Notes: generated by a model from the sequence alone, not told the origin. 64,000 bases of DNA from an uncultured delta proteobacterium (GCA_963785235.1 CAWAUM010000012.1:128001-192000), one strand, 5' to 3'; positions 15,091-50,492 are shown, counted from the first letter of the stretch. A program made the numbers and translations.

Positions 15091-15108
15091 AGCCCTGAGA
15101 GGGCTTTG
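15091..15108 (+). terminator. Possible weak terminator after tex
   Basis: agccct-gag-agggct-ttg hairpin a few nt after the stop. Confidence 0.35.
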
Positions 15109-17229: not shown

Positions 17230-17396
17230 ATAATGCTTAAAACCGCATTACCTCGCACGGGTTATTCCATGATGCTCTATCAGTCATCAAGTTAGGAAGC
17301 GCATTTAGGTATAGAGTTCGTGATAATCATCTAAAAGGCACCTTTGCCAAGATCGCACGGCTATAATACAGACAATAACTCAGGAGGAGGTGTGTC

Positions 17397-18850: not shown

Positions 18851-19136
18851 GACAGGGGCCTTTTAATGGGTGCCATACTCAAAGCTTTGACTATATTGAA
18901 TGTTTGTAAACATAATCTCTACTCTTTGAGATGGACCAGACTCCACAAGGAGGGTTTATTGAAGTTGTCGATAGTTGCATGTTTTGAAGGTATCACTAAA
19001 TCTATACAGTGTTAAAGCTTTGAATCGTTATCTATGGTCATAACCATAGGTTTCTTTACGCTCGCTCCCGCTGATGCAAGATATCCTCCAGAGAAAATTG
19101 CCTTCCTATATTTCAAGATTGCAGATCCATCGCAGA

Positions 19137-20324: not shown

Positions 20325-20400
20325 GATTGCGCAATGTCCCCCACATTATACAAGGTGTTGTGAATTGTCTTGACCGGGCTTATACTATTATTAAAATATT

Positions 20401-23376: not shown

Positions 23377-23411
23377 GAAGACCAGGTATATCTTTATGAG
23401 GGAAATGACTC

Positions 23412-32117: not shown

Positions 32118-32420
32118 TCTTGAGGTCTCCTTTTGACCTTACCCATGTTTACGGCTGCATTCATCACTAAAACCCTCCATATATCTTAGCTTCCAGGATG
32201 AACGAGTCAAGGACACAGGTCCATTTCATTACGGAAAGAAGAAGTGGTTTGTGTCGGACAGTTTTTACCTTTTTATGGATAGGGGTGGAGGTGATATATG
32301 CCGGGCGCTGGTATATCAATCGTGATTGCACAACCTGACCAGCGCCTTGCACTGTTCCCCGGTCAGATTCTACGGGAATAGTAATTCAAACGTCTTGTTT
32401 GATGATAGCTGATTGTCTCC

Positions 32421-32447
32421 TGGATCCCCGCTTTCGCGGGGATGACA
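32421..32447. repeat. REP-like palindrome, possibly ending the upstream operon transcript
   Basis: Minus strand gtcatccccgc-gaaa-gcggggatcca, ~45 bp downstream of the last operon gene. Confidence 0.65.
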
Positions 32448-32491
32448 GGAGTATGAGTTTTCAGTTGACGCTAGACTGACACAGCCACGCG

Positions 32492-34765
32492 TCAGGGCTG
32501 CGGGTAAGACACCCCGGGGTGATAGACGAGCGTCACCCTGAAATAGTACGGCGCACTGTTGTATCCTCCCCAGTCGTCATCAGGCTCCAGGTTCCTGCTG
32601 CCATCTGAGTTGTACAGATAGTTGAAGTCGCTGATACTGAAATAAGTCTGACCTCGCCATGGGTTGCCTACCCAGAACCTGCTCTCACCCGTGGCAGGTG
32701 TCCTGATATTCATGGTGGCAGGGACGTTGTTCTGCTTTCCCGCACTGGCCACAAAGCCATCAGACCCACTGATGCGATCGGATACCACGGCGTTCTTATT
32801 CCTGTCGGGATAGAACTTCCAAACGTACTCCGCGTCGGCTGCGGGTGCATAGAAATCTACATATATCTCATAATACCAACTGGTGGAAGTATCCAGAGGC
32901 TGGAAATCCATAAGGAACCAGTCCTGGTCGCCCTGGTAGTCAACATATCCAGCAATCCAGGGAAATGTGAGCGTGGTCAGCCCTGTCTGGGGTGTATTGA
33001 GCTCGGTTGTGACACCTGAACCTGAAAAAGCAAGCAATGACGTGTTCACACCAAAGATCTTACGGTTTACGGAATCCAGCTCCAAGGTCACCGGGTTTGA
33101 AGACGATTCCGTTGCCTCACTATAATACTCAACCGCAGCCTCAAAAGGAGGTGTTCCACTTGCAACAGCAGGCAGCGTAGTGGGGATATCTTTCACATCA
33201 ACGCGAATCGTATACGTTACATCGCTCCCCTCGTCATCCCTGAAATCGAATACCTTGAAAGAATAGACTCCTGCAGCAGAGCTGGCGGGTATGAGCAGGC
33301 TTGTCTTTAACTTCGTGGGAGCAGTCTCCGCATCAGGGTTCGTAAGGGTCTTGATCAACTGGGCGCCCATAATGCTCAAGGAGTATTCCACCTCGGAAAT
33401 GGGCGCATTGAAATAAACCTCGAGTATCTGGGGTTGTGCATGCGCAGGTATGGTTACATTATACCAGTCCGCATCACCCATGTAGCTGATCTTGCCGGGT
33501 GTGGTCAGGGTAGCCGAAGGCGTAAGGCCGATGGCATTCCCGATGGTGCTGTTGTCATTGGGCGGCGTGTCCGCACTGTCGATGATGTCGAGCATTCTCA
33601 CTGTTGACGTATATGCCGCGCCCTGGGTTATCTTCTGTCCGTCTCCGGCCTGGATCATGAGGTAGTAATTCCCGCTGCCCAGTTTGAGCTGGGTATGCAA
33701 CTCGGCAGCCCCCCCGGTATAGGTGCGGGAATAGACTACAGCCGAATTCGCATCAAGGATGTTGATCTTGTACTTGGCCCTGGTTGCAGCACTGAAGCTC
33801 AGGTGCAGAACCTGGAACCCCGATGACGCAGATGGTTTTGCTATCCGGTAGAAGTCTTTGTCTTCCGTGTAATCCAAAGATCCGTTGATGGTGTAATCCC
33901 GGCCGTACTGTCCGAGATCCACTGTTGTTGCACTAGCGACCACGTCATTCCCGTTAGCCTCTGTATTACTTACTGCATTGATACATACCTGGTACGGGGA
34001 GGCATTATCGAAATGGTCCTTCCCATAATCGCTTACAAGGACATGGTATACCCCTGCAGCCAGATAGTGGATGAGATGATAGTTTTTGGCACCAGAGCTG
34101 GACTGAGATTCTATGAGTTTCCCATTGCTATCGTACAAGGCGACATTGATCTGGACCGGGGTGCCGGTCATGGGTGTGAACGTAACGGCCGTATCAAAGA
34201 TACCGCCTGTAGAGATGAACTTGAAGCAATCGACATCCCCGACATAGCCTATGGTATTTGTGGGACAGGTTGCAGCTCCTGCGGTCAAGGTCACTGCCTG
34301 AGAGATGGAGTCGTTCCCTTCGGACTTGCCGGCATAATCAATGCTCAGGAAGTACGGGTCATTTGAGGCCTTGTCATCCTTGTAATCGCGTACTGCAATA
34401 TAGATGTCCTTGGGCTGGTCAATAACGGCCTTCAATGTCAGATTGGCAGGTACAAGGCTTTTTTCAGGGGCATGATCTCCGTAGATGATGGTCTTGTTGC
34501 CGTTGCTGTCAGCCTGGTAAAGCGTTACGAGGAGCTCCACATCAGGCCGAAGGGTCTCACTGGTGCATCTCACCTGTAAAACACTGCCCGGCTCTGTAGT
34601 TTTAAAGTGGTACCAGTTGACTGCACCGACATTGGAGATCTTCCCGGACACCCTTTCCTGCAAGGCCAGCTCATGTACCCCTGAGTTGGCGTGGTTCGAA
34701 GAGCCCTTGGAGCACGACACCATGAACAGAACCACTATAATGACACAATAGAAAGACCTTCTCAT
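32492..34765 (-). CDS. Lipoprotein with repeated PPC-like beta-sandwich domains (MtsF-like)
   Basis: Lipobox MVSC; repeats ISNVGAVNWY / IGYVGDVDCF / LDYTEDKDFY / ISYMGDADWY / VDYQGDQDWF. Confidence 0.7.
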   Translation of the reverse strand: MRRSFYCVIIVVLFMVSCSKGSSNHANSGVHELALQERVSGKISNVGAVNWYHFKTTEPGSVLQVRCTSETLRPDVELLVTLYQADSNGNKTIIYGDHAPEKSLVPANLTLKAVIDQPKDIYIAVRDYKDDKASNDPYFLSIDYAGKSEGNDSISQAVTLTAGAATCPTNTIGYVGDVDCFKFISTGGIFDTAVTFTPMTGTPVQINVALYDSNGKLIESQSSSGAKNYHLIHYLAAGVYHVLVSDYGKDHFDNASPYQVCINAVSNTEANGNDVVASATTVDLGQYGRDYTINGSLDYTEDKDFYRIAKPSASSGFQVLHLSFSAATRAKYKINILDANSAVVYSRTYTGGAAELHTQLKLGSGNYYLMIQAGDGQKITQGAAYTSTVRMLDIIDSADTPPNDNSTIGNAIGLTPSATLTTPGKISYMGDADWYNVTIPAHAQPQILEVYFNAPISEVEYSLSIMGAQLIKTLTNPDAETAPTKLKTSLLIPASSAAGVYSFKVFDFRDDEGSDVTYTIRVDVKDIPTTLPAVASGTPPFEAAVEYYSEATESSSNPVTLELDSVNRKIFGVNTSLLAFSGSGVTTELNTPQTGLTTLTFPWIAGYVDYQGDQDWFLMDFQPLDTSTSWYYEIYVDFYAPAADAEYVWKFYPDRNKNAVVSDRISGSDGFVASAGKQNNVPATMNIRTPATGESRFWVGNPWRGQTYFSISDFNYLYNSDGSRNLEPDDDWGGYNSAPYYFRVTLVYHPGVSYPQP

Positions 34766-34777
34766 TGGTATTCTCCT

Positions 34778-36385
34778 TTAATGGAGCAACTTGAAATCAC
34801 CCTGGGTAAGGGTGATGATTCTGTCACGGTCATCGATATTGACCACTACCTCTGCCATGCGGAATACCGGCGGGCTGTCGGGCCTGTCTTCCGGAACCTC
34901 GGCGATATAAAACCGGATAAGGTTATCCCCGGCATTCCACAGGGTTCCGTCTTCCTTCACATACTCTAGCGTATCTGCAAGATAGATGTTGGAGATATCA
35001 AAATTAAATTGGCGCACATAGGAGGCCATATCGTCCCCCTGGTTAATGGGCACAAGCCCTGCATCCTTGATGTCATAGATATAGCTGTTCAGTTCCCTGA
35101 TCTTCGGGTCATTGGAGGTAACGTTGGTGTGCCGCTGCACCTCCATCCAATCAAGCACACTGTCAAAGTCGGTATCCTTGTTGGTCTCCACTTCAAGGGG
35201 ATTGGTTCCTGAGAGGAACTCGATACCATCAGGGATGCCATCGGAATCCGTGTCCGGGTTGAGCCTGTTCGTGCCTTTGATATATTCCTCGCAGTCAGTC
35301 AGGCCGTCGTTATCCGAATCAACCCTTACCATGCCTGAGTCACAGATGCTGTCATGGGGATTCAGCGGGTCCAAAACATGGCCGGGAGAACTCGACTTGA
35401 TCTCGAAAAAATCGCTCAGGCCGTCGGAATCGGTATCTCTCCTGGTGGGATCGGTTCCATAAAATGCCTCTTCTTCGTCAGAGAGACCGTCTGTGTCACT
35501 GTCAATGTACACAAGGTCAACACCGGGTTTGACATTATAGTTGTATGCAGCAATGTACTTCACCTTGTATTCAATGGTCAGGCGCATATCCACGATATTG
35601 ATGAAGTCAATGGCCTCGGCATTTTCAAAGAGCCGGAACTGGCCGTTGCCCCTCTCTGCCATACCCTGCAGCGTTGTTTCCGCCTCCTGCTGACGTGCCT
35701 GGCCCGAGGCGTCGGCACCGAAATTGCCCAGCAGGAGGAAGGTATGGAAATTGAAAGACCCGACCCCGTATTCCGTGACCATGTCGGTCATATCCTGGAC
35801 CTTTTTCCATATATCCGCATCTGCCTGGGTCTGTCCCTGGGCATTGGGCACCCCGTCGCTCAGGAAGATGACGATGTACTTCGATCGAACACGCGCCTCT
35901 TCATTGGAGTTGATAATGTCATTGCGGATATCGGCAAAGACGGCATCCAACGTCCCGAGATAATCGGTGGTGGTGTCGTTCTGGACATCTGTCAGGATAT
36001 CTTCCAGTACTGTCGGGTCTTTGGTAAATCCGCCGGTAGTATCGAAAACCGTATTGCTCCACAGCATCACATCAAAGGAGGTGTTCTCGTTGCTGTTGAA
36101 TGCATTGATGAAATCCCTGGCTGCCTGGATGCGCATAAAATAGGGATCAGACCCTGCCACGATCCCCATCTCTTCATCGCCCATGCTCAATGAGCAATCT
36201 ATGGCGAACAGGACCTTTACCGGGAATTTTATCTCATCAGGGCTCTCGGTCAGGAACGAACCCTGAAGCCCCACCTTGGTCTGGACCTGGGTCCGCTCAA
36301 GGTTCGGGCTGTCAGTACACCCGAGCAGAACGGCCAGTACCGTCCCGAGAATGAATAGTGCTGCCTTATTTCTTTTCACACGCAT
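34778..36385 (-). CDS. VWA + Ca-binding (DTDxDG) repeat lipoprotein (MtsD-like)
   Basis: Lipobox LLGC; FPVKVLFAIDCSLSM (MIDAS DxSxS), TDY, FLSDGVP; DTDSDGLSD repeats. Confidence 0.8.
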   Translation of the reverse strand: MRVKRNKAALFILGTVLAVLLGCTDSPNLERTQVQTKVGLQGSFLTESPDEIKFPVKVLFAIDCSLSMGDEEMGIVAGSDPYFMRIQAARDFINAFNSNENTSFDVMLWSNTVFDTTGGFTKDPTVLEDILTDVQNDTTTDYLGTLDAVFADIRNDIINSNEEARVRSKYIVIFLSDGVPNAQGQTQADADIWKKVQDMTDMVTEYGVGSFNFHTFLLLGNFGADASGQARQQEAETTLQGMAERGNGQFRLFENAEAIDFINIVDMRLTIEYKVKYIAAYNYNVKPGVDLVYIDSDTDGLSDEEEAFYGTDPTRRDTDSDGLSDFFEIKSSSPGHVLDPLNPHDSICDSGMVRVDSDNDGLTDCEEYIKGTNRLNPDTDSDGIPDGIEFLSGTNPLEVETNKDTDFDSVLDWMEVQRHTNVTSNDPKIRELNSYIYDIKDAGLVPINQGDDMASYVRQFNFDISNIYLADTLEYVKEDGTLWNAGDNLIRFYIAEVPEDRPDSPPVFRMAEVVVNIDDRDRIITLTQGDFKLLH

Positions 36386-37151
36386 CTCCTATTCCGTCCT
36401 GGTCAGAATCTTTTTGATCCGGATTAGCAATATCCGGGCAGTTATCGCATGCATCTCCTATCCCGTCGCTGTCGGAATCATTATTGTTGTCACTGTGGAC
36501 CCGTGGGCAGAGATCAATGGAATCAATGAATCCATCGCTGTCAAAGTCGTTGTCGCACGCATCCCCTCTCCCGTCACTGTCCGTATCCGACTGAACAGGA
36601 TTACCGACATAGAGGCAGTTGTCTATTTCGTTGGGGATGCCATCACCATCCATGTCATCGTCGCAGGTATCTCCTTTGCCGTCGTTATCCGTATCGTTCT
36701 GCGAAGGGTTATAGGTAGTGGGGCAGTTATCCGAGGCGTTTAGTTTTCCGTCTCCATCGATATCATCATCACATGCATCACCTTTACTATCACCATCGAT
36801 ATCCTTCTGGTCGGGATTCGCCATATGAGGACAATTATCACAGGCATCGCCAATGCCATCGCCGTCGGAATCTGCCTGATCGTTCGGGAGATAGGCACAA
36901 TTATCCCTTGTGTCCAAATATCCGTCGGCATCGGCATCTTCATCCAGAGAAAAATATGGCCCAATGTCATATTGCACCAGTATCGGGCCTCCGCCGGACC
37001 CTCCGCCGCCTACTCCTCCTGCCGGAGGTGCGCCGCAGGACTGGTCAGGGCACTCGTCAAACCAGTCGTTAGGGTCGGTGATTGCAAAGGCCTGGGCGTA
37101 TATGATTAAAAGAAAGGCTGTGCAACTGATTATGATTTTACAATATTTCAT
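36366..37151 (-). CDS. Secreted thrombospondin type-3 repeat protein (MtsC-like)
   Basis: Signal peptide, ECPDQSCGAP-Gly-rich leader, many DxDGDGIGDACDNCP..NPDQ repeats. Confidence 0.85.
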   Translation of the reverse strand: MKYCKIIISCTAFLLIIYAQAFAITDPNDWFDECPDQSCGAPPAGGVGGGGSGGGPILVQYDIGPYFSLDEDADADGYLDTRDNCAYLPNDQADSDGDGIGDACDNCPHMANPDQKDIDGDSKGDACDDDIDGDGKLNASDNCPTTYNPSQNDTDNDGKGDTCDDDMDGDGIPNEIDNCLYVGNPVQSDTDSDGRGDACDNDFDSDGFIDSIDLCPRVHSDNNNDSDSDGIGDACDNCPDIANPDQKDSDQDGIGDACEKK

Positions 37152-37163
37152 GATCGCTCCCCT

Positions 37164-38506
37164 TTAACGGTAGAAAAGATAGATGGTCTGGTCAGTGTTC
37201 GAGTATGAGCAGATATATGCGGTGCCTGCATTATCGAACCAAAGCGTGTTATAGTTGCCGATATCGCCTGTAGAGACAACAGTCTCCTTGACCCATGACG
37301 CGCCGCTCCTGCTTGCCAGCATAAGGTCTTTCAGACTCAGGCTCCCGCTGTTGTTCTGCATGGAGTAGTAGGCTATTGATGGATTCCCCGATGAATCAAA
37401 GGCCAGAGAACAATACTTGCCGCAGAAAGTGCTCTCATCCACTATGGTTGAAGTCCAGGAAGAAGATGTCTTGGCAGCATATTTCAGACACTCCTTATGG
37501 GTTATGCCCGAGGCATCCTGATATTCACCGGTAATGTAGTAGGCAACACACGGATTGCCGTTCTTGTCCAGGGCAGCGCTGATACCGCCGACCGTAAAGC
37601 CTGTCTCAACCCATTCATGCCCCCAGGTGCCGTCACTCTGCCGGTATGCAACGCGAAGACCTTTTGTATCAGGATCCGAAAGATTCGGCTTCAGGTCCGC
37701 ATAGTAGAATATGACAGGGTTCTCGTTCTTGTCGAGGATAAGGGCTGCATGGGCACCGACCCTGTTCTGCGCGCTTGCCGAACCGTCCGGATTATAGAAA
37801 TTCCCTTCAACCGCCTCTTCCGTTGCCTCGGCGCCCAGGGATGACCCATCCTTTTCCACATAGAGCAGGTCAGGGTAATTGAAGTTCATGGCATCGATGC
37901 CTTCGTAGAAGAACTGGTAACACAGGTGGATATTGCCGTGGGAATCAAGGGCGGTAGATACATACTTACCGGCAAGACCGTCTTGGAATACGGGATTACG
38001 CTCTACAAAACCAATTCCTCCTGTGTACTCCGCCCACGAACCACTTTGAAGGACACTCACCATGGCATCGGACTGCTGCTCCGATCCACCTGCCCTGACG
38101 GTTCCACCCTGGTATGCAATAGCCACAAGACCGCCCTGCCCCAACGCCATACCAAGGGTCCGGCAGTTGTCTATATCAATGACCGTATCACGGGAAATCT
38201 CGCTTTGAGTCCCCATATCCCAGACGATATGATTGATGCTGTAGTCGCCCGGTATTGTCAGGCTATCCGTGAAAAAAGCGATATGGAGCTGTTTGTTGCT
38301 GTCAACAGCAGCCTTGACCTGGGGAAGCAAAAGGCCGCCGGCCGGCAACTGCTCGATACTGACCTGATGCCAGGTGCTTACCGGGTTGTTGATGATTGCC
38401 TTGTTACCGTCACCCTTTCGTATCACTACCCCCTGATCCCCCGCCGCAGTTGGAGAAAAAAACCAGGGCTATAAAGAGGCATATTAGTATGCCCGAGAGA
38501 ACGCAT
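37164..38506 (-). CDS. Beta-propeller-like lipoprotein (possibly MtsB-like); two indels in the 5' end
   Basis: Frame-corrected N-terminus MRSLGILICLFIALVFFSNCGGGS; repeats 'G.Y.SLA.D..GNP.IAYY', 'W..E.V'. Confidence 0.7.
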
Positions 38507-38507
38507 A

Positions 38508-41500
38508 TCACTTCTTTGAAATCTGGCCGGATGCATGGTAAATCTCCTTTGCCTTGGGGTGAATGGGGCCATCTGCCTTTTCCGCATCAATTGGTGAGGG
38601 AATCCCTTCATAGAGCTGCATTGCCTGCTCAACATGACCATAATAGTTAAAAAGTGCTGCAAGATTGACCTTGGCGCTGATACTGCCCGAATCGAGAGAA
38701 ACAGCCTTTTTGAAGGCATCCTTGGCAAGGTCGTCTTCATTGAGGTAAAGCCGCGATACCCCAAGGCAGGTATTGAACCTGGCCATGAGCGAGTGAATTT
38801 TCATCCTTCTTCTCATCAAGGGCCTTCTGGGCAATGAATGACGCATGCCAATAATCGCCCCTTTTCATGTAAGCCTCACAGAGCGTCAGGAGCGCTGGGA
38901 TATCTTTTTTGGTTTTGAGCAGCTGCTCATGGAGCCCTTTCAATTCCTGATCCATGAGGCACCCATCAGAGATCTCGGAAGCGGGGGCCTTTTCTGAGAA
39001 AGGCGCAAATCCCTTAAAGGAGCCTCCCGGATCTGAAGGGGGATTAAAATATCCCGCAAGGGCCGGGTCGCAGATCTCCCATTTGCGGCCCTGCTGAACG
39101 CACGTCTGGAGATATTGATCCGCCTTGTCTTTGTAGGTATTGGCCTTCTGGCTGATGAGCTGGGTATACTGCTCCTTCTGTTCAGGGGTGAAGTCGGCCG
39201 GGACAGGTGCTTCTGTGAGGAATCGTGCAAATTCACTGTTTATCACATATGACTGGTAGCAGGCCTTTAATGCCCACTGGGATGATTTGTAGAGAATTAC
39301 CGTCTGATACGACTTCTCCAGCTTTTCAAGAAGCTTGGACTTGTCTGTAACGATCTTGTTGTCCAGTGCACCTTTCAGCTGCAGGCCCATGTACCCTTTC
39401 TGCTCAAGCACTGTTGACTCATAGACTGCCCCTGCCATGTCTTTTTGCACCTGCTGATCCGCTTGATATGACTTTGGCTGATATGCCTTTTCCGCCCTTT
39501 TCAGGTATTTCTGTGCTGTGCTCATATCCCCGGCTTCAAGATACAGGCTTGCAATCCTGGCATCAGCGCGGATCTTTCCGGCATCACTAAGCCTGTCACG
39601 GTTGTCCAAGAGCACCTTCAGCGCGGTTTGGCTGTCACCTGAGCTGAAGGGCATTATCCGCAACCTCAAAGACCATATCCGTAAGGGATGATGCATCTTT
39701 GGCCTTTGTATCAATGAGTCTCTTATAGTCTTTGACCGACAGGCTGTACTGGCCAAGCCCTTCCCTGATCTGACCTGCCTGCTGGAGAAAATCGCGAGCA
39801 TTTTTATGCCCGGGAAGCCTTAAGGCGAATGACTCAAGATAGTCTGCAACGAGCCTGAACTGGGCCATGCGCACAGAGCTGTCGATCATCATATTCAGCG
39901 TGCCTTCCACCTTGCTTGATGTGGGGTACTCCCGGATAAGGTCGGCGCCCGCAGTAAGGAGCGTCTTTACATCTCCCTTTTCCTTGCTGGAAATGATCAC
40001 GGCATTCAGGGCTTCCTCTCCCATGCCTGTGGTCTTACTGTGGGCGGCAAAGGCCAAGAGGTCGGACTTACCTTTATCCCAGTCGCCCAAAGCGGCAACG
40101 GTAAGCGACGAAATCACCTTTGATTCTGAAGACTGGACAATGCCTGAAACCTCGTTTTTTAATTGCTGATCCGCAATGGCGGGGCTTTGTATGATCCCTT
40201 TTCCATAGGCAATGAGTCCTGCATAGTCTTCCTTGAGATTATATGAATCAAGGACCAGGTGTACCGAGGCCTTTGTGGCCTTGCTATTGGGATAGGCTGT
40301 GGGCATATTTGGTAAACTCATTGATGGCAGTATCGTAATCTCCGGCATCGTACGCAATCCAGGCGACGTTAAACAGAACATCCGGTACGCGCGCAGACTG
40401 GGGGTAATCGGATGCATAGAGCCTTCCTGTGGATCTGAGCCCATCCCTGGCAAAGGCGGTCTCGTAGTAGTTGAGTTTCTGCTTATCCTTGATGGCATTG
40501 TAATAGGATATGACTGCGCTATAGAGCTTGTCTTCCCGCTCGGCATTGCCGGCCGCCATGCGAAGCGCCGATGCCTCGTACTGCTTGCCCGCCTTGAGGT
40601 ACTGCTGCGAAGAGAAAAGGGCCTCTGCATAATTCTCGCCCATCTCGGAGTACACAGGGCTGGCATTAAAAAACTCCAGATAGATCTTGTATGCCTCTGC
40701 AGATGCGCTTGAAGTCATCGATTGATTCCTTCTTGCGGGCCTCGTCGTGCAGGTAGGTGACGATGTTCCTGGCATAGAGCTCGAAATCCGTCTGATCCTT
40801 GTCCTTCTGCTCGTCAGGGACATGGATGGAGTATTTCTCTTTCTTCAGTGCCTTGATGATGAGGGCCACATCCTTGTCGGCATGCTCGAAGGTGCCGATC
40901 GCCTGCACGCATTCAAAGGTATTCCGGGCATACTCCAGCAGCTTTGTGGGCTCCTGTTCGAGCGTGGACAGCTGCCGGTACACTACTGCTGCAGACGACC
41001 ATTTCTTTTTTATGTAATACCGGTTTGCCAGCTTTTCCAGCACAGCAGTGTAGACCTGGCGCGACCAGGAATATTTCTGGAAATAGGTAAGGGCTTCCTC
41101 TGGCGGGGCGTCCTTGTAGCACTCGGTATAGCAGTAGGCCATATCCATGAGGGCTTCCTGCTTGATGTCCACACGCTTGTAGGTGTCGATCTCGAGCTCT
41201 TTGCCCTTCTCGGCACCCAGCACCACCTCTTCAAAGAGCTTTAAGGCCTCTTGAAACTTAAGCTGGTTGATGTAGCACCATCCGAGCTTGTAGCGCGCAA
41301 TGGATATGGCGGTGCAGCCGGGATACTTTAAGATGGCCTCATAGTGCTTCTTGGCCGTTTCCAGGTCCTGCTTGCTGATGAAATAATCGCCCAGCAGCAG
41401 ATACGACTCCGACACATAGGGGCTGTCCGGATAATCTTTTATGATGGTGCGGTACTGTACGACCATATCATCGATCTGGTTCAGCTCCCTGTACTCATGG

Positions 41501-41945
41501 GCCATGAAAAAGTGGACCTTGTCCTTTGACTTGAATTCGGGGAAGTCATTCAGAATACGCTGATAGATTTCCAGTGCCTGGTTCTTGAAGGCATTTGATT
41601 CCACCTGATCGAAGGCGGATGCCGCTTCTCCCTTTTCCGTCCTGCGCACATAGTAGACAATCCTTGACTGTTCTATGTAGAGCTCGGCCAGCCTCAGATA
41701 AAGTTCGGGGAGATACGGCTTGTTCCTTGCCTTGTGAATCAGTGCCTTGGTATTGAGGATTGCAAGATCGACCTTTTTCTTGTCCTCGGTGAGCTTTGAG
41801 ATATACCTGGCCTGCTCTGTGCCATTATCCTTCTTCTCATATCCGATATTCGTCGGCATGGACACTGGCCGGTACGACAATGACAAGGGACAAGGCCCCT
41901 ATGATCAGGACACCTGATAATGCGTTGTATGCTCTGTAATTTCAT
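38508..41945 (-). CDS. Large exported TPR protein, GltD(AgmU)-like with GltE-like C-terminal TPRs; about six frameshifts
   Basis: Corrected signal peptide ..ALSLVIVVPASVHA; successive TPR ORFs 40666-41886, 40284-40823, 39635-40666, 38737-39801, 38508-38846; motif 'Y..V..Y...WA..A...FA..L..APVP...EQK..Y...I...A'. Confidence 0.75.
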
Positions 41946-43485
41946 TCATTTGAAAAAGATATCCCACTCTTCAAGATTTTTGCATTTGTTGGGCAGAACC
42001 ACCTTGAGCTCGGCCAGCTCATCGTTCCAGAATTCTCCCTGGAACGGGATAGACTACAATGCCCTGCAATGAACCTTTGCCTGGCTTCTGTTCATCAGTA
42101 TAATGGTATTGATTGACCCGCTGGTACATATCGAGACCTATCTCATAGGCCATCATATGTGCCTCCTCTTCGTACTGCAAAAGGGCATCGGCATACTTCT
42201 CATACTCCGATTCCATTAGGATCTTCAGGTTCGAGGTGCTTTCCTCTATCTGGTATGCATAGATCTTATCAAGATACCCATAGAACGCATCGCTGCCTTC
42301 CTTCCTGAACCCAGCGCACAGGGCACTCTCCTTTTCCAGGAGCTGGAGAAAAGCCCAGGTCTGCTTGATGTTCCTCTTGTTCAGGACCAGAAGCAGCAGC
42401 TCGTTGTTCTCGCTTATCTTGCCGCGCTGATAGATGCCGCTTAAGGCCTTGCCGTAATGCCCCTTGAACTCATCCACCACGCCCATGGCACTCTGGTAAT
42501 GGCATACATCCTTATAGATGAATGACTTCAGCATGTAGTATTCCGGCGTCAGATAGTTTCTGTAACTCGGGGCCTCAAAGGCATACAGCAGGCCCATGGC
42601 CTTTTCCGGATTTCCCATCCGGTACTGGGCCCATGCCCTTTCCAGGAGATTCTGGGACTGGGAAAGGATATTCTGCTCGATAGTCTCATAGAGCAGGTCG
42701 GATTCCTTGAATTTACCCTGCTCATAGAGCAGCCGTGCCAGGGTCTTGCGAACATCGTCCTTGAGGGACTCATCCGTGCAAGAGCCGGAAAGGATCTGGT
42801 TCAAAAGGGGCACCGCCTCATCGATCCGGTTATTGTAGATCTTCAGCAAGGCTTTCTGGTTCAAAAATTTGTAGTAATAATAGGTGCCTGGTTTGATCTT
42901 GGCGAAATGTTCATCCCCCCAGGTAATAAAACCATGTTCCCAGTCATAGACGCCCTGGTGATAATTGATGAAGGCCGAGAGGTTCCCGTCCGCATATCCG
43001 AATTCCTGGTCGCATACGGTCTGGGTGATGATCAGATCGTTGTCAAATGCCTGGGAACGGGACATGGTCTCGAATATCTCCATGCTGTACTCGACTATCT
43101 TTGGGTTGGGTTTCCTGGAGACAAGCCGGGCCAGGATGTCGGCTGCTGCATGGGAATAACCCAGCTTCTTCAGTGAGACGCCTAAAAAAAACTCGGCCCA
43201 CTCGTAATCGGCCGCATCCGGTGAATAGGCGCTGATATACTCATAGAAATAGGGGCAGGCCATCTCATAGTTTTGGTCTTTGAACAGCTCATATCCCGTC
43301 AGGAAATTCGTCTGATCAAGTTGGACCTGGGCCTTAGGTTCTTTCGCGTCGGGTGTAACAGGTTCTGGTGTTACAGCTTCGGGTGTTACAGGCTCCATTG
43401 TAACAGCGTCGGGCAATGCTGCATATCCGGAACTGAAAAGCCCCAAGCAGAAAGCTATGATGAGAATGGGAAGTATTCTATTCAT
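41946..43485 (-). CDS. GltC-like exported TPR protein; +1 frameshift near 42046
   Basis: Signal peptide, 'LLERAWAQY', 'PEYYMLKSFIYKDVCHY'; corrected C-terminus YPFQGEFWNDEL..C resembles the GltC-type PFxGExWxDEL tail. Confidence 0.8.
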
Positions 43486-44200
43486 TGTTGTCTTTCTTTT
43501 CAAGATATCCTTTGAGCTTCTCGACGGTTTCATCCTGCTCAGTCTTGTCGGGGAACAGATTGAACTGGAACGAAAGGCCGATACCGAAATACACGTTGTT
43601 CTCTGTCTTGTCCTTTTTCATGTTGATCAAGTCCCTGATCTCAAGGGTCATGCAGAGATTCTTGTTAAGAAAATAACGGGTGCCGGCGCCTACGCAGACG
43701 GAAGGGTCGCTCTCGGCATCCTTTTCGCCGTTGCTGTACTTCTTTTCATAATTGATGATGCCGCCGCCTAAGATAAGGTAACTTTCATGGTTTATGATGC
43801 CTTTGTTCCAAAGGGCTTCCTTTCCATACAGCGGTTTGATGATGAGGTTTGAGTGGACCATGTATTTGGGCTCCAGGAACACCTCGGGCGTGACACCAAA
43901 TTCCTTTTCGAGCTTGCCCTTGATGTCCTTCTCCCGGGTGAACATGAACTGGCCTCTCGCAACCTCCCAGGCCAGGTAGCCGTTGAAGTGATAGGTGTAG
44001 CCTATCCCTACGGGATATACGTTGAAAAAATCATCATCGGGAATGTAGCCGAAGTTCAGGCCTATTTCATGATAGCGGTGAAACACCCTCTCCTGGATGG
44101 CAAATACCTTCTCATCATCTTTGGTATCCTGGCACAGACCAGGGCTCGAGATCAGGATCGCGAACAGAATCAGGATGCCTAGCACAGATCTTTTATTCAT
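43478..44200 (-). CDS. Outer-membrane beta-barrel protein, GltA/GltB/GltH-like
   Basis: Signal peptide, 'AIQERVF..HE', 'D.F', 'YHF..YLAWEV', 'PLYGK', 'GAGTRYFL..LEIRD', terminal beta strand GIGLSF. Confidence 0.8.
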   Translation of the reverse strand: MNKRSVLGILILFAILISSPGLCQDTKDDEKVFAIQERVFHRYHEIGLNFGYIPDDDFFNVYPVGIGYTYHFNGYLAWEVARGQFMFTREKDIKGKLEKEFGVTPEVFLEPKYMVHSNLIIKPLYGKEALWNKGIINHESYLILGGGIINYEKKYSNGEKDAESDPSVCVGAGTRYFLNKNLCMTLEIRDLINMKKDKTENNVYFGIGLSFQFNLFPDKTEQDETVEKLKGYLEKKDNNE

Positions 44201-44213
44201 TGCTCTTAACTCC

Positions 44214-46754
44214 TTAGAACCCTACGATATCGAAAATGAACGGATAGGATACGATCACTTCACTCCCCTCGGGCTGAGGGAATTCCCATGATTTTATTGC
44301 ATACTGTATGCAGGAATGGATATCAGTTGAATTGAGCGTGGATGACTTGATCTTTACCTCTCCGACCTTGCCCGACATCAGGATCTTCCATTCGAACACG
44401 ACCCTTCCCATGAGCGACGGGCTTGCCACCAGCGCCGTTTCATAACACCTGGTGATCTCATCAAGGTGCTGGTCAATGATCTTCTTGACCTCTTCCCTGC
44501 TCATGCCTCCGCCCTGAACCTTAACGGTCTTGTTCAGCTGGGCGCTCACCTTTGCCTTGACCTGCTGCGTGCCTGTACTGCCCTTTTCCAGTGCGGCAAC
44601 CCTTACTTCTCCGCCAGGACCACCTGATCCACCGGTTCCGGTACCGTCACCTGTCCCTGAACCACCTGTCCCTCCACTACTCCTTAAGACCTGTGAAGAT
44701 CCCTTGGTGCTCACGATGCCCGCCTTTGGTATCTCGATCCTTCCACCACCCAGTTTGCCTACGATGCCGCCGACCTTGAACTGGGCCTTGTTTTCAGCCG
44801 GACTGCTTACTGCATCCAGGTTTGTAACCGCTGCCATGGCTTCGGTGGGTTTTATGCCGATACTATCCCCGAGCATGCTGAGGAGCCCTGCCTGGTGAAT
44901 ATTCTTCGTTGAGACATTACCCTCCCCTGATCCGCCTCCGGACCCAGTACCAGATCCGGTACCATTGCCACCCGTCCCTGAACCGCCGCCGCCCGAGGTT
45001 GATGTACGCGAGGAGGCAGCCTTTGACGGTGCAGACTGGGCGGTAGCAAGGCGGTGATCATTTGATAGAGCTGTGATGTGCCTTTTCCCTATTTTCTGTG
45101 CAAACTGCTCTTCTTTCAGCTTGATGATCTCAGGCGGTTTCTTAGGGACCTCGGGTGCCTGAGCTATCTTCTTGATCTCGTTTAACTGCCTGGTATCCAC
45201 CTGAACAAATCGGCCTTTATCCTGGAGCTCCGGTTCGTATTTGTAGGTAGGCATCATCCCCAGGATCACCAAGATGATGACATGAACGATCACCGATCTT
45301 GTGAAGTGCCGCGCATACACCTTGTCATTATTCAGGGTTCCCTTTACCGGCGGGCTGACACAAGGGCTTGTCTGCCTGAGGAGATATTCGTATGGACCCA
45401 GGTGTATGACTACCTCTTCATGGCGGCCAATGGGTCTTGACTGTGCCCCTGGAACACTTCTCTTGAAGGATTCCAGGTCACTGGGAATTTCATGCCCCAT
45501 TCCCAGGGCATGGCCTGCCTCGATGCAACCATCCGCCTGATCATCCAGATAGAGAAACATCTCGCCCGCGCCCTTGTTCTCGGCAAGGCAAAACAGCCCC
45601 TTATCTTTCCGGATGAGGTATTTCTCCTGTGCGTGCAGAAACCTCACATCGATAATGTCATCATTCCTGCTCTGGACAATCTCCAGAAGGATCTCATTAT
45701 CGGTTATCCTGTTGCTGACTGATGCCGCCAAGGCAACGCCGTTCTTTATACTTTCTTTCAGAGAGAATGTTGCCCGGGCCTCTTCATCGTCATCTTCATC
45801 GTCATCTTCTATGACGGCTGCCTTTCTCATACCCTGCAGCTCTGTGGATACGACACCGGAGGTTTCATGGCTCTCCTGGCCGCCAAGGGCATGGATGGAT
45901 GAACCTGTTTGGGGCTCATTACATTGGCCCTCTGATGTGTCCAACTCTCGAGGATCAGGTTCGGCCTCCTTATGGACAGGTGAGCTTTGGTCAGTGCTGC
46001 GCTCAATGGAACACAAGGCGCCGGTGTCCTCGAACCTGGCCTGAAGCTCTACAACAGAGCGATAATCCGCATTCCTCTTGAGTATGGCCTTCCTGCCCGA
46101 AAACAGTCTCTCTATAGAGCTCTCATCTTTCTTGAACAAGCCCTTGAGGTTCTTCCTGACCTCATCAAGGGATGCACCCTCACGGATGCGGCCTTCAAAT
46201 ATCAGGTTGTATCGATCCGGACCGTCCGGCAGTTCATCCATGCCCGAACCGGTTTTGGACTGGTCGGTATCAGCGTTATCCCGGGTCTCATGCATTATGG
46301 CATTTTCTTGCAGACGTTCAACATCCGGAGCTTTCTTATCCGGCCCCGCAGCCGCCTTTTCATGTCGCTGAGAAGTTCCCTTCAGGGATGCACCCGGAGC
46401 ACCCTGCCCCTTGCCATTCCTGTTCATTTTAGCCTTGATGGTATAGGGCCCGATCAACAGGGAATCCAGGGGGTTGACTGCCATGGACTCGCAGATACCG
46501 TCATTACCGGATCCCGGATAGGAAACCATGAGACGTCCATCCATGACGCAGAGCACTGCATGGATATTCGATACACCCTGATCGCTGAGCTGAAGATCAG
46601 TATCATTGCCACTGCCTATGGTGATCTCTTTCTTACAGAAGCAATCCCATCCCAGGCACTCTTCTCCCCTAAAGACAAATAACTGGATCATGGGGAGGTC
46701 ATCTGCAGCCCTCAGATTCAATGTCTGTTTCTCCATAATTTGCTCATTATCCAT
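44214..46754 (-). CDS. FHA-domain, TonB-like energy transducer with AgmX/PglI C-terminal domain (GltG/GltJ-like)
   Basis: N-terminal FHA-like (ITIGS..D..L..VS..HA), TM helix with SVIVH, Gly-rich linker, C-terminal 'I.RCYE.AL...P.L.GRV..W.I...G.V..SCI...I..W.FP.P..V.VSYPF'. Confidence 0.85.
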   Translation of the reverse strand: MDNEQIMEKQTLNLRAADDLPMIQLFVFRGEECLGWDCFCKKEITIGSGNDTDLQLSDQGVSNIHAVLCVMDGRLMVSYPGSGNDGICESMAVNPLDSLLIGPYTIKAKMNRNGKGQGAPGASLKGTSQRHEKAAAGPDKKAPDVERLQENAIMHETRDNADTDQSKTGSGMDELPDGPDRYNLIFEGRIREGASLDEVRKNLKGLFKKDESSIERLFSGRKAILKRNADYRSVVELQARFEDTGALCSIERSTDQSSPVHKEAEPDPRELDTSEGQCNEPQTGSSIHALGGQESHETSGVVSTELQGMRKAAVIEDDDEDDDEEARATFSLKESIKNGVALAASVSNRITDNEILLEIVQSRNDDIIDVRFLHAQEKYLIRKDKGLFCLAENKGAGEMFLYLDDQADGCIEAGHALGMGHEIPSDLESFKRSVPGAQSRPIGRHEEVVIHLGPYEYLLRQTSPCVSPPVKGTLNNDKVYARHFTRSVIVHVIILVILGMMPTYKYEPELQDKGRFVQVDTRQLNEIKKIAQAPEVPKKPPEIIKLKEEQFAQKIGKRHITALSNDHRLATAQSAPSKAASSRTSTSGGGGSGTGGNGTGSGTGSGGGSGEGNVSTKNIHQAGLLSMLGDSIGIKPTEAMAAVTNLDAVSSPAENKAQFKVGGIVGKLGGGRIEIPKAGIVSTKGSSQVLRSSGGTGGSGTGDGTGTGGSGGPGGEVRVAALEKGSTGTQQVKAKVSAQLNKTVKVQGGGMSREEVKKIIDQHLDEITRCYETALVASPSLMGRVVFEWKILMSGKVGEVKIKSSTLNSTDIHSCIQYAIKSWEFPQPEGSEVIVSYPFIFDIVGF

Positions 46755-46804
46755 TATAGTTTTCCAAGCTGAAGCCTTATGGCTTCAAGCCATCAGGGTC
46801 TCGA

Positions 46805-47218
46805 TCAATATCCATCCTGGGAGACCAGATGATCCTTGCCTTGACGTTCGCTGGTATTTGACTGATTCTCTTTTTGATCCTTGATTTTTACCCTGGCGGC
46901 ATCAACCAAGAAGCCATCAAGGATCTCTTCACGATAATCCTGGCGATACTTGAGCATGCTCTTGATCTCGCTTTTTTTTCGCTGGAGGAGATAGACCGCC
47001 CCTGACTTGATTGTCTGTCCGATAATGTATGTATTGCCGAAATCGATTCTATTCGTACGTGACTCGAGTGTGTCTTTCGTTATTGCTGGTTCCTCTTTCT
47101 GAGTTATTCCCTGGTCCTTCTCTTGAGCGGATGCTGCCCACAGGGTTGTATATATTGCTGTGAGAATAAAAAAGATCGCTGCAATTATCAGCATTAGTTT
47201 TCTTAGTATATCTCTCAT
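46805..47218 (-). CDS. Small exported protein, GltF(CglF)-like
   Basis: Signal peptide; 'IDF...I.G...K....Y...RK......L..R.D..E.I' pattern. Confidence 0.65.
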   Translation of the reverse strand: MRDILRKLMLIIAAIFFILTAIYTTLWAASAQEKDQGITQKEEPAITKDTLESRTNRIDFGNTYIIGQTIKSGAVYLLQRKKSEIKSMLKYRQDYREEILDGFLVDAARVKIKDQKENQSNTSERQGKDHLVSQDGY

Positions 47219-47230
47219 GGAATCATCCCC

Positions 47231-47710
47231 TTACTGCTTCAGCACTCCAAACTGGAAATTGGGAAATCCGGCCATTCCGGCTGTCTTGATGATGCCGTTA
47301 ATGGTTTTGAACGAAAGGCGTTTATCACACAGGAACAGGACAAGGCTCTTGTCCTTGCCCTCGACATTTTCTTGAGCCGTCTTCTGGCGGCATTTTACAA
47401 GCTTCTGGTACAGCACCGAGCCTTGGAGATTATTGAGATCAAGACCCACGACAGCCCCATCCTTTATCTGTGCAATGGGCTCTTCTCCCAACCACATGGT
47501 GTTCTCTGAAACAGCAAGCCTGATGCTGTCCGTAAAATCTCCTTTGGCCGTTGATTTCGGCAGGCTGATGTTCCCATCAATGCTGAAACGGGCGACTTGA
47601 TCCGAAAATGATGCAAGCAGGAAGATGAGAAGAAAGGTGAAGATATCCACCATCGATGTCATTATTAATTTGGGGGGGGTAACCCTTCTTGAATGACTGC
47701 CCAATGCCAT
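47231..47710 (-). CDS. ExbD/TolR family protein (AglS/Q-like)
   Basis: TM 'MTSMVDIFTFLLIFLL', LPKS, C-terminal 'CDKRLSF..I..TAGMAGF'. Confidence 0.88.
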   Translation of the reverse strand: MALGSHSRRVTPPKLIMTSMVDIFTFLLIFLLASFSDQVARFSIDGNISLPKSTAKGDFTDSIRLAVSENTMWLGEEPIAQIKDGAVVGLDLNNLQGSVLYQKLVKCRQKTAQENVEGKDKSLVLFLCDKRLSFKTINGIIKTAGMAGFPNFQFGVLKQ

Positions 47711-47721
47711 AGCTGCTCTCC

Positions 47722-48231
47722 TTACCCGATCTTCCCTGATATCACTACATTGGGGAATAACTGGCCATCCTTTGAAAACCGGGCAACATCCATGGCCTGG
47801 ATGATGGTGTCGTAGATGATGCTATTATCCGGAATGATAATGACGGTATCGCTTTTGGGATATTGCGTTTTAATTGTTTGAAGGAATGAAGCGAGTTTGC
47901 CTAATGGGTATTGCGCCGTGTTCTCTTTTGGAAAAAAGGTTCCTAATCGATTCAGTGTCTCAGGATCAACCTCATCACACAGTGCTGATAAATTAATGCC
48001 CTTATTATCGAGTTCCACAACTACCGTGACCTTGATGTTACTTTCCTGGACCTTCTCACCTTCAGAATTCCCCAGAACCGGGACGGAAGTGTTGATGGCC
48101 CTGAGATTAAAGAAGCTGAAGGATATGAGTAGAAGAAGAACTATCACCAGGAACACATTCATGACCGGGGTAACATCTATATCAGCCTCTTCTTCATCTG
48201 GCCTTTTTCGGTTGTGCCTGGAACCTAGCAT
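47722..48231 (-). CDS. ExbD/TolR family protein (AglQ/S-like)
   Basis: TM 'DVTPVMNVFLVIVLLLL', C-terminal 'IIPD..I.YD.II.AMD.AR..LFPNV'. Confidence 0.88.
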   Translation of the reverse strand: MLGSRHNRKRPDEEEADIDVTPVMNVFLVIVLLLLISFSFFNLRAINTSVPVLGNSEGEKVQESNIKVTVVVELDNKGINLSALCDEVDPETLNRLGTFFPKENTAQYPLGKLASFLQTIKTQYPKSDTVIIIPDNSIIYDTIIQAMDVARFSKDGQLFPNVVISGKIG

Positions 48232-48860
48232 TGCGATTCCTTTTCATGCTTCAGAGATGAAAGAATATTGAAAAGCCTCAATGCCTTGTGCTCCAACTCA
48301 TCGATTACAGACTCACCCTTGTTGTTGATGATATAAAAACCAATCAGGCATGGTATGGCGATTAAAAGTCCGAAGGCCGTTGTCAGCATGGCAACTGAGA
48401 TACCGCTTGCAAGTATCTCCTGCTTCATGCTGTCACTCGCATGCGCTACACCTTCGAATGCGGTGATCAACCCATGAATTGCTCCAAGCAGGCCGATGAG
48501 CGTTGCGATATTTGCGAACATGGAGAACAGGTTTGTCTTGCTCTTGATCCTCGGGATCTCCCTGATTATCTCCTCTTCCATTGCCCGTTCGATTTCCTTG
48601 TCTCTCTTGTCTGACTTCATGAGACCGGCCTTTAAAATCCTGCCCAGAGGATGCTTTTCAATCCGGGTGCATTCCTCGATAGCAGCCCTGAAATTATATT
48701 TCTCCAAAGACAGCACAATCTTCTGAAATGCCTGATCCGTATCCAGCCTTAGGCGGAAAAATAAATAGCTTGCGCGTTCACAAAACAATGCGAAGGCAAT
48801 AATTGAAACAAACAAGATGGGGTGCATGAAAAAACCACCTTTTATATAGAGCGATAACAT
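48225..48860 (-). CDS. MotA/TolQ/ExbB proton-channel protein (AglR-like)
   Basis: GG.FM.PI, ER, ANIATLIGLLG, GISVAMLTTAFGLLIAIP. Confidence 0.92.
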   Translation of the reverse strand: MLSLYIKGGFFMHPILFVSIIAFALFCERASYLFFRLRLDTDQAFQKIVLSLEKYNFRAAIEECTRIEKHPLGRILKAGLMKSDKRDKEIERAMEEEIIREIPRIKSKTNLFSMFANIATLIGLLGAIHGLITAFEGVAHASDSMKQEILASGISVAMLTTAFGLLIAIPCLIGFYIINNKGESVIDELEHKALRLFNILSSLKHEKESQC

Positions 48861-49020: not shown

Positions 49021-49360
49021 TGTCTTGAGACGATATGTTTTGTCTTTTTTCTCATATCTTTAATATTTGATTTATTATCATTATGTTAAGATTTATTTTT
49101 TTGTAAATTATTCCCTGCCTGACCATTGAGTTTAGTGGTAATTTCCCTTCGACAGCCTGTGAAGAATTACATATTTTGTAAATGCAGTTACTTTATTGAA
49201 CGTGGATGTCGTTAATAGTAATTGCGATTCTCTTACACCTTTCTGAATCAATAGGAATAATCCACCGGTATGCATGCATGCACCGTGAGATAATCCTTAC
49301 TTTGAGCCTTTCCATTGTCTTTGCCATAAACTGTGTTTATAATCGCTAAAGGTCCAACCC

Positions 49361-50482: not shown

Positions 50483-50492
50483 GGAGCTGATC

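Follow-up and report, generated by a model that had tools for sequence, protein, structure and literature searches.

Can a gliding-type motor and the adhesins on which it might act be encoded as one unit outside the myxobacteria? This question is raised by a locus at positions 48860..32492 (minus strand) of a 64,000-nucleotide stretch of DNA from an uncultured delta proteobacterium (GCA_963785235.1, CAWAUM010000012.1:128001-192000; hereafter, the window). A previous reading of this DNA, made from the sequence alone (the sequence-only reading), proposed a self-contained motor machine similar to the Agl-Glt system of Myxococcus xanthus, joined to adhesin genes similar to those of the Mts locus. 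The profile searches, structural models, and genome comparisons presented here indicate that the locus is probably one operon for an Agl-Glt-type envelope-spanning machine that is driven by the proton-motive force (PMF) and holds, exposes, or pulls its own Ca2+/MIDAS adhesins (MIDAS, a site of adhesion that depends on a metal ion). The assembly that carries the window is designated G000; other G- and L-numbers denote comparison genomes and loci, and C-numbers denote contigs.

The locus was present as a single copy in G000 and consisted of 12 co-directional genes, in which neighbors overlapped or were located no more than 50 nt apart. The genes and their order agreed with those seen in the sequence-only reading:

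48225..48860, minus strand: TolQ/ExbB/MotA-family proton-channel subunit (AglR-like), 211 aa, three transmembrane (TM) segments; Pfam MotA_ExbB, 97.7 bits
47722..48231, minus strand: ExbD/TolR-family subunit 1, 169 aa; Pfam ExbD, 48.0 bits; Asn replaces the TM Asp
47231..47710, minus strand: ExbD/TolR-family subunit 2, 159 aa; Pfam ExbD, 40.7 bits; TM Asp kept
46805..47218, minus strand: small envelope protein resembling CglF(GltF), 137 aa, with a signal or anchor at the N-terminus; NF033764
44214..46754, minus strand: GltG-like transducer, 846 aa; FHA domain, TM segment, Gly/Ser-rich linker, and AgmX/PglI (TonB-like) C-terminal domain
43478..44200, minus strand: GltA/GltB-type small outer-membrane beta-barrel, 240 aa; TIGR04565 OMP_myx_plus
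41949..43533, minus strand: GltC-like periplasmic TPR protein; NF033756; apparent stop at 42019 due to an insertion at 42048
38511..41985, minus strand: large periplasmic TPR protein, a scaffold of GltD size; ~1154 aa in relatives, five frames in G000
37164..38536, minus strand: beta-propeller lipoprotein, ~455 aa in relatives; N-terminus broken by insertions at 38498 and 38419
36366..37151, minus strand: secreted thrombospondin type-3 (TSP3) repeat protein, 261 aa; Pfam TSP_3
34778..36385, minus strand: VWA and bacterial-TSP3 lipoprotein, MtsD/CglD-like, 535 aa; Pfam VWA and TSP3_bac; intact MIDAS
32492..34765, minus strand: lipoprotein of 5-6 beta-sandwich domains, 757 aa; AlphaFold2 (AF2) model and Foldseek
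49062..49107, minus strand: promoter-like sites 5' of the first gene, TTTACA-16-CATAAT, 10/12, a consensus match only

Families were assigned with Pfam and NCBIfam profiles, and bit scores were compared to the curated cut-offs. Only two curated gliding-type domain models passed, namely the AgmX/PglI tail (NF033768, 108.8 vs. 40) and OMP_myx_plus (90.3 vs. 60). The GltC, GltG, CglF, MtsC, MtsD, and CglD models were the best or the sole named match for their respective genes. Six of the 12 products, including the propeller and beta-sandwich lipoproteins, had no curated model above its cut-off. The identities that had been proposed gene by gene were maintained apart from the label "GltD/E-like" for the large TPR protein, for which the sole grounds are its size, its TPR content, and its position; the GltE model (NF033758) gave generic TPR matches elsewhere in G000 and none at the locus.

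Conservation and linkage of the motor and adhesin genes

The gene order, on whose conservation the sequence-only reading depended, was kept for all 12 genes in three genomes of the same genus (G008, G009, and G012). A search of the phylum with the large TPR protein (E<=1e-40) identified it in 12/401 genomes, which belonged to 7/254 genera and five families, and the flanks were compared for seven of these 12 genomes. G207 and G074, from other families, contained all 12 genes in identical order, and G314 and G246 showed the identical order until their contigs ended. In family f46 (G084, G121, and G274), the TSP3-VWA-beta-sandwich block was located directly upstream of TolQ, and not downstream of the propeller gene, which itself always accompanied the motor block. 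Because the motor and adhesin blocks remained neighbors through rearrangement and across five families, their linkage looks functional, and the two blocks would appear to work together. This shared placement is the strongest evidence for such joint function, and the arrangement as a whole is strongly non-random.

Homologues of the individual proteins were more numerous than the complete locus. The family of the large TPR protein comprised 530 members (E<=1e-3) among 8000 candidates scored, and the best 120 of these 530 were 1025-1199 aa long with at least 47% identity. The propeller family had 149 homologues, and the beta-sandwich family had 311 representatives at E<=1e-3. The names given by the sources to the large TPR homologues were "tetratricopeptide repeat protein," "cellulose synthase operon protein C," and "TolA-binding protein," and every source-given name among the propeller homologues was "hypothetical protein." The sources were metagenome-assembled genomes (MAGs) labeled Desulfobacterota, Desulfomonilia, Desulfobacteraceae, Desulfatitalea, Deltaproteobacteria, Nitrospinota, and Pseudomonadota, as well as Candidatus Magnetomorum sp. 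HK-1. The 18 close relatives of the f46-type propeller were all unnamed or from MAGs, and no cultured carrier was found among them.

The distribution within the genus indicated that the locus is accessory. The GltG-like protein was present in 8/14 other genomes of the genus and in 14/41 relatives overall (G000 counted). In G002, which belongs to the same genus, the Tex gene and two HGD-D genes that flank the locus in G000 were located 2.1 kb apart, with other genes between them.

The AgmX/PglI tail was found in 75/401 genomes of the phylum. Simpler clusters were identified in 3/12 further tail contexts (L093, G061:C1; L094, G069:C31; and L095, G101:C12), in the order of a very large TPR protein, a ~500-aa unknown gene, TolQ-ExbD-ExbD, and an AgmX/PglI-tail protein of 445-551 aa. 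Barrel, GltC-like, propeller, and adhesin genes were not detected in these three clusters, which may correspond to the published "core complex" that is discussed below. The ~800-aa proteins with the same tail in L085, L087, L088, and L091 had no adjoining TolQ/ExbD genes and were set aside as a different context.

Motor, scaffold, and adhesin proteins

The TolQ-like protein had three hydrophobic stretches, and each of the ExbD-like proteins had one. Its best channel match was the tolQ model (76.3 bits vs. a cut-off of 221), and it was the weakest of the four TolQ-like places in G000. In ExbD subunit 1, the motif VP(I/V)MN(M/L/V)F, with Asn at the usual position of the membrane Asp, was kept in 11/11 orthologues, and in subunit 2 the motif T(S/A)(M/L)(M/V)Dx(F/M)T, with the membrane Asp, was likewise kept in 11/11. 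Because this Asp/Asn difference was constant, the stator would be a fixed asymmetric heteromer of two ExbD-like subunits, as has been proposed for AglQ/AglS.

The GltG-like protein contained an FHA domain (21.2 bits vs. 20.7; Pfam Yop-YscD_cpl also matched), a TM segment at ~483-505, and a Gly/Ser-rich linker that precedes the AgmX/PglI tail, so that ~480 residues were predicted to be cytoplasmic and ~340 periplasmic. It scored 94 bits with the GltG model (equivalog cut-off 650) and 48 bits with the GltJ model. The FHA domain suggests that a phospho-threonine partner controls the protein or serves as its scaffold. A PDB sequence search with the tail revealed no informative relative. The cytoplasmic segment at residues ~173-271 (window 45942-46238) was covered by no Pfam family; it was duplicated in the L002 orthologue, and it also matched open frames of ~390-415 aa in four class-level relatives that do not carry the locus (G028, G031, G035, and G039; E 4e-5 to 3e-9).

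The small envelope protein matched the CglF model NF033764 with E 1e-5 (25.4 bits) in G000 and E 1.6e-6 in G008, that is, with 25-28 bits vs. a cut-off of 90, and it had the conserved core RIDFGxxYIxGQxIKSGAVYL; CglF has been described as the same protein as GltF (PMC4488436). The barrel passed both OMP_myx_plus and, narrowly, Pfam OMP_b-brl (29.1 vs. 28.7), and 11 orthologues were aligned. A second OMP_myx_plus barrel (G000:C1:684321-685204, 65.5 bits, above the cut-off) was located away from the locus, beside a gene with an OmpA-like domain. The GltC model NF033756 scored 84.7 bits (E 6e-24) in G000 and 100.8 in G008 (cut-off 450), with a match that spanned only model positions 311-428 of 622. 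Relatives of the GltC-like protein were 516-569 aa long, with over-extended starts, and in G000 the C-terminal 33 aa ran on in another frame. The large TPR protein matched TPR families and YbgF (74 bits) and had a signal of the signal peptidase I (SPI) type. It matched none of the gliding models compared, among which there was no GltD model or sequence.

These parts raise the question of whether the locus is an ordinary system of the TonB-ExbBD or Tol-Pal type that serves uptake or the integrity of the envelope, with adhesin genes as neighbors by chance. The machine shares with these systems a motor family of the 5:2 type and a periplasm-spanning TonB/TolA-like transducer with a C-terminal docking domain. 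The tolQ model was the best channel match, the TPR proteins matched the YbgF/CpoB and BamD models, the TPR genes precede a beta-propeller gene as TolA precedes TolB, and the related tail protein in the simpler cluster of G061 also passed the TonB C-terminal model. On the other hand, the TonB-dependent receptor, TolB, and Pal families had no match among the 12 products in the Pfam and NCBIfam searches, and TonB uptake systems have a short TonB, whereas the transducer of this locus is an 846-aa protein with an FHA domain. The adhesin block was attached in two gene orders across five families. Furthermore, a separate cluster on contig C13 encoded TolQ (213 bits) and TolB (310 bits), and the locus is accessory, with a different site in G002, unlike a housekeeping envelope system. 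The lasting attachment of the adhesin block and the separate tolQ/tolB cluster already contradict an ordinary system with chance neighbors, which is very improbable.

The lipoprotein that follows the large TPR protein had been called beta-rich, and its AF2 model showed a confident beta-propeller fold (predicted local distance difference test, pLDDT, 91; predicted TM-score, pTM, 0.91). Its lipobox Cys was read from the orthologues, in which it is present, because the N-terminus is frameshifted in the window. Foldseek matches included propeller lectins, sialidases, and polysaccharide lyases (TM-score 0.5-0.6, 9-12% identity), and comparison with the Protein Atlas returned only unnamed or BNR_4-type clusters at a recognition value below the usual level. 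The last lipoprotein of the locus was modeled (pLDDT 85.7) as a chain of 5-6 beta-sandwich domains, in which Foldseek recognized likeness to CUB, neuropilin, reelin, and the collagen-binding domain of ColG, and its lipobox C18 was invariant in 39 sequences. As for the earlier name of "PPC-repeat lipoprotein," Pfam PPC had no match, and the label rests on structural likeness to ColG domains among others. Neither the propeller nor the beta-sandwich lipoprotein matched an NCBIfam gliding or Mts model.

The two proteins encoded between these lipoproteins carried Ca2+-type repeats. The TSP3 protein had an SPI-type signal peptide, 160 bits over seven stretches with Pfam TSP_3, nine DxDxDG motifs, 16 Cys, and 23% Asp. 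The VWA lipoprotein matched Pfam VWA (25.6 vs. 23.8) and TSP3_bac (45.4 bits) and contained four DxDxDG motifs; the MIDAS D63xS65xS67...T140...D177 and the lipobox C23 were invariant in 8/8 sequences. A PDB sequence search with the VWA profile revealed no informative relative, and a modeled complex of this protein with the barrel scored 0.00 vs. a mark of 0.32, which is evidence neither way.

The Mts locus of Myxococcus, which includes MtsC and MtsD, functions in cell cohesion, S motility, and development. The TSP3 protein had MtsC as its best match (255 bits), and the C-terminal two thirds of the VWA protein aligned to MtsD (99 bits). However, these scores were under the cut-offs of 350 and 800, respectively, the TSP3 protein is 261 aa long vs. 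428 positions in the MtsC model, and the CglD score of the VWA protein was 45 vs. 400. The proposed Mts-like character of the adhesins thus holds at the level of domains and does not extend to equivalence with the Mts proteins. To our knowledge, the Mts genes of Myxococcus have not been reported as attached to a motor.

The sugar-related folds of the lipoproteins allow another interpretation, in which the motor moves, spreads, or anchors exopolysaccharide or matrix, as Agl-Nfs does in Myxococcus, and the propeller and beta-sandwich proteins are glycan binders. The model of the propeller is nearest to sugar-binding lectins, sialidases, and polysaccharide lyases, and the beta-sandwich chain resembles CUB, carbohydrate-binding (CBM), and collagen-binding modules. 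Agl motors are also described in a glycan task other than motility, as Agl-Nfs moves spore-coat glycan over the cell surface (PMC3858216), and Luciano et al. considered the core complex alone unlikely to drive motility (PMC3169522). In addition, a cyclic beta-1,2-glucan synthase gene adjoins the locus in G000 and G011. However, this synthase is not a conserved neighbor, since G008 is without the whole 17.4-kb segment that carries it, and the 12 conserved genes include no glycosyltransferase or polysaccharide-export gene. The fold matches reach only TM-scores of 0.5-0.6 at 9-12% identity, with no sugar site shown, and the conserved MIDAS VWA and TSP3 proteins are classical modules for adhesion to proteins or a substratum. 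A polymer-handling role is unlikely on this balance, and adhesins that are held, exposed, or pulled by the motor remain the favored interpretation.

Frame changes in the source assembly

The sequence-only reading noted frameshifts in the locus, which would matter if they were real and the locus were dead. DNA alignment confirmed ten single-base insertions in G000 (42048, 41944, 41914, 41845, 40704, 40299, 39643, 38790, 38498, and 38419), which affect the C-terminus of the GltC-like protein, the large TPR gene, and the N-terminus of the propeller. The large TPR gene was accordingly read in the tblastn frames -2/-3/-1/-2/-3 in G000, and its orthologues were intact at 1139-1158 aa in G008, G009, G012, G074, G246, and others. 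The inserted bases were absent from G008, G009, and G011 wherever these aligned; G011 has an N gap at one site. Apparent deletions in G011 proved to be two runs of 100 N and were dismissed as signs of decay.

Several observations point to errors of assembly. All ten changes were +1, mostly outside homopolymers, and no stop-codon substitution was found. In comparison to the nearest relative, G011, the ratio of nonsynonymous to synonymous substitution rates (dN/dS) was 0.07-0.15 in all five frame pieces of the large TPR gene, with no in-frame stop, and 0.02-0.27 in neighboring genes. Frame breaks relative to G008 occurred in 7/41 compared syntenic open reading frames (ORFs) of G000, including 5/31 outside the locus. 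In four public sequencing runs, 8/8 listed contig pieces over insertion sites showed gaps equal to the insertions that they spanned, and the six listed contig pieces that spanned no insertion site had no gap. The G000 assembly was 93% complete in 13 contigs, which would be consistent with an error-prone long-read assembly.

Three points weigh against this interpretation. The insertions are denser at the locus (10 in 3.7 kb) than in the flanks (~6 frame changes over ~45 kb of synteny); the hexapeptide transferase gene, one of the broken flanking ORFs, is also split in G002, so that this break may be natural; and the public-run contigs derive from relatives (mostly 90-99% alike) and not from the source strain. 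It is therefore to be considered whether the locus in the source strain is a recently inactivated remnant, with ten real insertions and a machine that is not made. The density of the frame-breaking insertions, which struck three genes within 3.7 kb, and the dispensability of the locus within the genus would fit such a remnant. Against it stand the uniform +1 nature of the lesions without stop-codon substitutions, the low dN/dS across each frame piece, the comparable breaks nearby in Tex, the aminotransferase, the NUDIX protein, and the molybdopterin enzyme, and an assembly of 93% completeness in 13 contigs, which would be consistent with error-prone long reads. A remnant is improbable, and the flanking breaks, the all-+1 pattern, the low dN/dS, and the gap-matched contigs make it very likely that the ten insertions are assembly artefacts. 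Sequencing error is thus the most likely source of the frameshifts, so that the cell probably has the system in intact form and the locus is probably not dead.

The broken ORFs outside the locus encode Tex (two breaks), a class-V aminotransferase, a hexapeptide transferase, a NUDIX protein, and a molybdopterin oxidoreductase (window 9973-15072, and C12:207493-214591 beyond the window). Single-base indel errors thus seem to be general in G000, and its other "pseudogenes" therefore need careful reading.

Relation to known systems, proposed function, and surroundings

The locus resembles the Agl-Glt machine of M. xanthus in its motor, where a TolQ-like channel is accompanied by two TolR-like subunits, and in its GltG-type transducer (FHA-TM-linker-TonB-like). 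The GltF-like small protein, the GltC-like TPR protein, the TPR scaffold of ~1150 aa, which has the size of GltD, and the small barrel of the GltA/B type are putative further counterparts. Published descriptions give GltG an FHA domain, a TM segment, a long linker, and a TonB C-terminal domain, GltD a TPR protein of ~1200 aa, GltF a small size, and GltA/B barrels of ~250 aa (PMC11761067, PMC4488436). The surface VWA lipoprotein with MIDAS and TSP3 Ca2+ modules resembles CglB/CglD. M. xanthus has its G1, G2, and M1 clusters and cglB/cglD at scattered sites, whereas here all genes sit in one operon. A CglD/MtsD-like gene is clustered with the motor at this locus, unlike cglD, which a preprint describes as never found clustered with gliding-machine genes (10.1101/2023.10.19.562135). 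The large TPR protein has an SPI-type signal, whereas residues of mature GltD are counted from Cys1 in the structural-model paper (PMC11761067).

Other comparisons with M. xanthus weaken the case for an Agl-Glt-type machine. Because the GltC, GltG, CglF, MtsC, MtsD, and CglD scores were all below the equivalog cut-offs, most of them far below, the products are, by these profiles, distant relatives of the Myxococcus proteins and not orthologues. The locus contained one OMP_myx_plus barrel and not three as in GltA, GltB, and GltH, and no sequence-level connection between the large TPR protein and either GltD or GltE was demonstrated. GltE, CglB, and GltJ of the M. xanthus type were not detected: the CglB model NF033757 had no match in G000, G008, or G009, and it matched no control genome either; a second tail protein that could represent GltJ was absent, because a genome profile search of G000 found just one AgmX/PglI-tail protein. 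Two further models that were tried as gliding models, NF033759 and NF033763, are TraA and TraB and were discarded as irrelevant.

A clustered form of this machinery has been described previously. Luciano et al. (2011) reported a "core complex" in which one cluster holds aglRQS, gltC, gltD, gltE, gltG, and an additional gene; it occurs in Geobacter, Fibrobacter, and some Gamma- and Betaproteobacteria, its function was unknown, and it was judged insufficient for motility (PMC3169522). The same authors encountered gltF, gltA, and gltB in no groups other than Myxococcales and Bdellovibrionales and speculated that gliding may be possible for any bacterium that has AglRQS together with GltD, E, F, G, C, A, and B. 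The present locus is similar to that core in having motor and Glt genes in one cluster outside Myxococcales, and the propeller lipoprotein is a candidate counterpart, as far as the published description allows the clusters to be compared, of the extra core gene, which has no myxobacterial homologue. Beyond the core as described there, it adds GltF-like and GltA/B-like genes and a conserved four-gene adhesin block, it carries a propeller lipoprotein, and GltE was not detected. It also resembles, by description, the expanded core of Bdellovibrio (e.g., Bd0828-0838), in which gltF, gltA, and gltB are added to the core in a non-myxobacterium, but that system belongs to another phylum, and the present one has an anaerobic lifestyle and an attached adhesin block. 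The gliding system of Bacteroidota (GldLM-T9SS-SprB) offers an analogy only, in that there, too, a surface adhesin is linked through the envelope to a PMF motor; the proteins are unrelated, and the sole trace here was a weak Por_Secre_tail-like stretch in the beta-sandwich lipoprotein (28-34 bits).

The literature searched contained no report that paired Agl-Glt or GltG with Desulfobacterota, Thermodesulfobacteriota, Desulfomonilia, or Nitrospinota, and the general Glt/Mts literature searched contained no description of such a cluster outside Myxococcales. Because the single-operon core of aglRQS with gltC/D/E/G in non-myxobacteria was already described (PMC3169522), the claim that this locus was the best candidate for a new system in the window has to be tempered. 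The clustered core dates from the 2011 report; the novelty lies in the attached adhesin module, together with the GltF-like and barrel genes outside Myxococcales and Bdellovibrionales.

By homology with the Myxococcus machine and its AlphaFold model, as published (PMC11761067), the following mechanism can be proposed. Proton flow through the TolQ5-(ExbD1/ExbD2) stator would be converted into work on the GltG-like transducer. The linker of the transducer would span the periplasm, and its TonB-like end would dock, beneath the barrel, on the scaffold that the TPR, GltF-like, and GltC-like proteins form. The VWA adhesin would be held at the surface by the barrel, probably with the propeller lipoprotein, and the TSP3 and beta-sandwich proteins would provide Ca2+-dependent binding, the targets of which could be a substratum, matrix glycans, or other cells. 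Exposure, loading, or pulling of the adhesin would consume the energy. Energized adhesion or cohesion, or simple surface translocation, is slightly favored over polarity-steered gliding in the style of Myxococcus, because GltJ and CglB had no match, in searches that did not include MglA, AglZ, GltI, or GltK.

A broader proposal is tentative and rather doubtful at present. It holds that the locus represents a widespread, undescribed proton-driven organelle for adhesion or gliding in anaerobic Desulfobacterota and, judging by the names of homologues, also in Nitrospinota MAGs and a multicellular magnetotactic prokaryote. Such an organelle would keep a "complete" ancestral form of the Myxococcus focal-adhesion motor, with integrin-like adhesins attached, and would serve surface movement or energized cohesion in aggregates.

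The coupling of motor to adhesin in Myxococcus is still derived mostly from models, and the present locus bears on this link. With a motor, scaffold, barrel, and VWA/TSP3 adhesins in one operon, it provides independent genetic evidence that this class of adhesins belongs to this class of motors. It would extend GltF-like and GltA/B-like parts beyond Myxococcales and Bdellovibrionales and offers a minimal 12-gene system for reconstitution. Such a natural "all-in-one" Glt machine with adhesins attached, patchily spread among uncultured anaerobes, points to a device for energy-dependent attachment or movement in organisms in which aggregation matters for syntrophy.

The host is, on sequence grounds, not a myxobacterium, as had been stated. 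Its genome is 3.9 Mb with ~52% GC, the MAGs that supplied the near homologues bear the names Thermodesulfobacteriota, Desulfobacterota, Desulfomonilia, or Deltaproteobacteria, and genes of the glycyl-radical and HGD-D types are located next to the locus. Homologue names at ~50-60% identity would permit a guess at the class Desulfomonilia. Shares in public sequencing runs were all <=0.29, and no habitat claim is drawn from them.

Two adjacent HGD-D genes (2-hydroxyacyl-CoA dehydratase/benzoyl-CoA reductase-type subunits; window 49361-51764) are divergent from the locus and fit an anaerobic lifestyle. On the other side, the 17.4-kb segment at 15071-32491, which is absent at the G008 site, contained genes for glycerol-3-phosphate dehydrogenase (19137-20324), a glycyl-radical (PFL-like) enzyme of 991 aa (20401-23376), and the cyclic beta-1,2-glucan synthase-like protein of 2901 aa (GH94 and GT2; 23412-32117). 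G011 likewise has a glucan synthase adjoining the locus. The synthase was considered as a part of the system and rejected because its segment is absent in G008.

Counts in the promoter and terminator scan were near those of shuffled sequences (27 promoter-like sites in the upstream region vs. 19.5 +/- 3.9, not clearly enriched) and were not used as evidence. Contigs of a relative in the RNA run X20 (mostly 90-95% alike) covered parts of the VWA, large TPR, GltC-like, and TolQ genes; this coverage does not show transcription and is a weak hint only. At the corresponding site of G002 (L097, G002:C16, 8213-10111), two ORFs, both judged by eye, occupied the interval between Tex and HGD-D, one ATPase-like (387 aa) and the other nitroreductase-like (213 aa). 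This interval is a variable spot in the genus.

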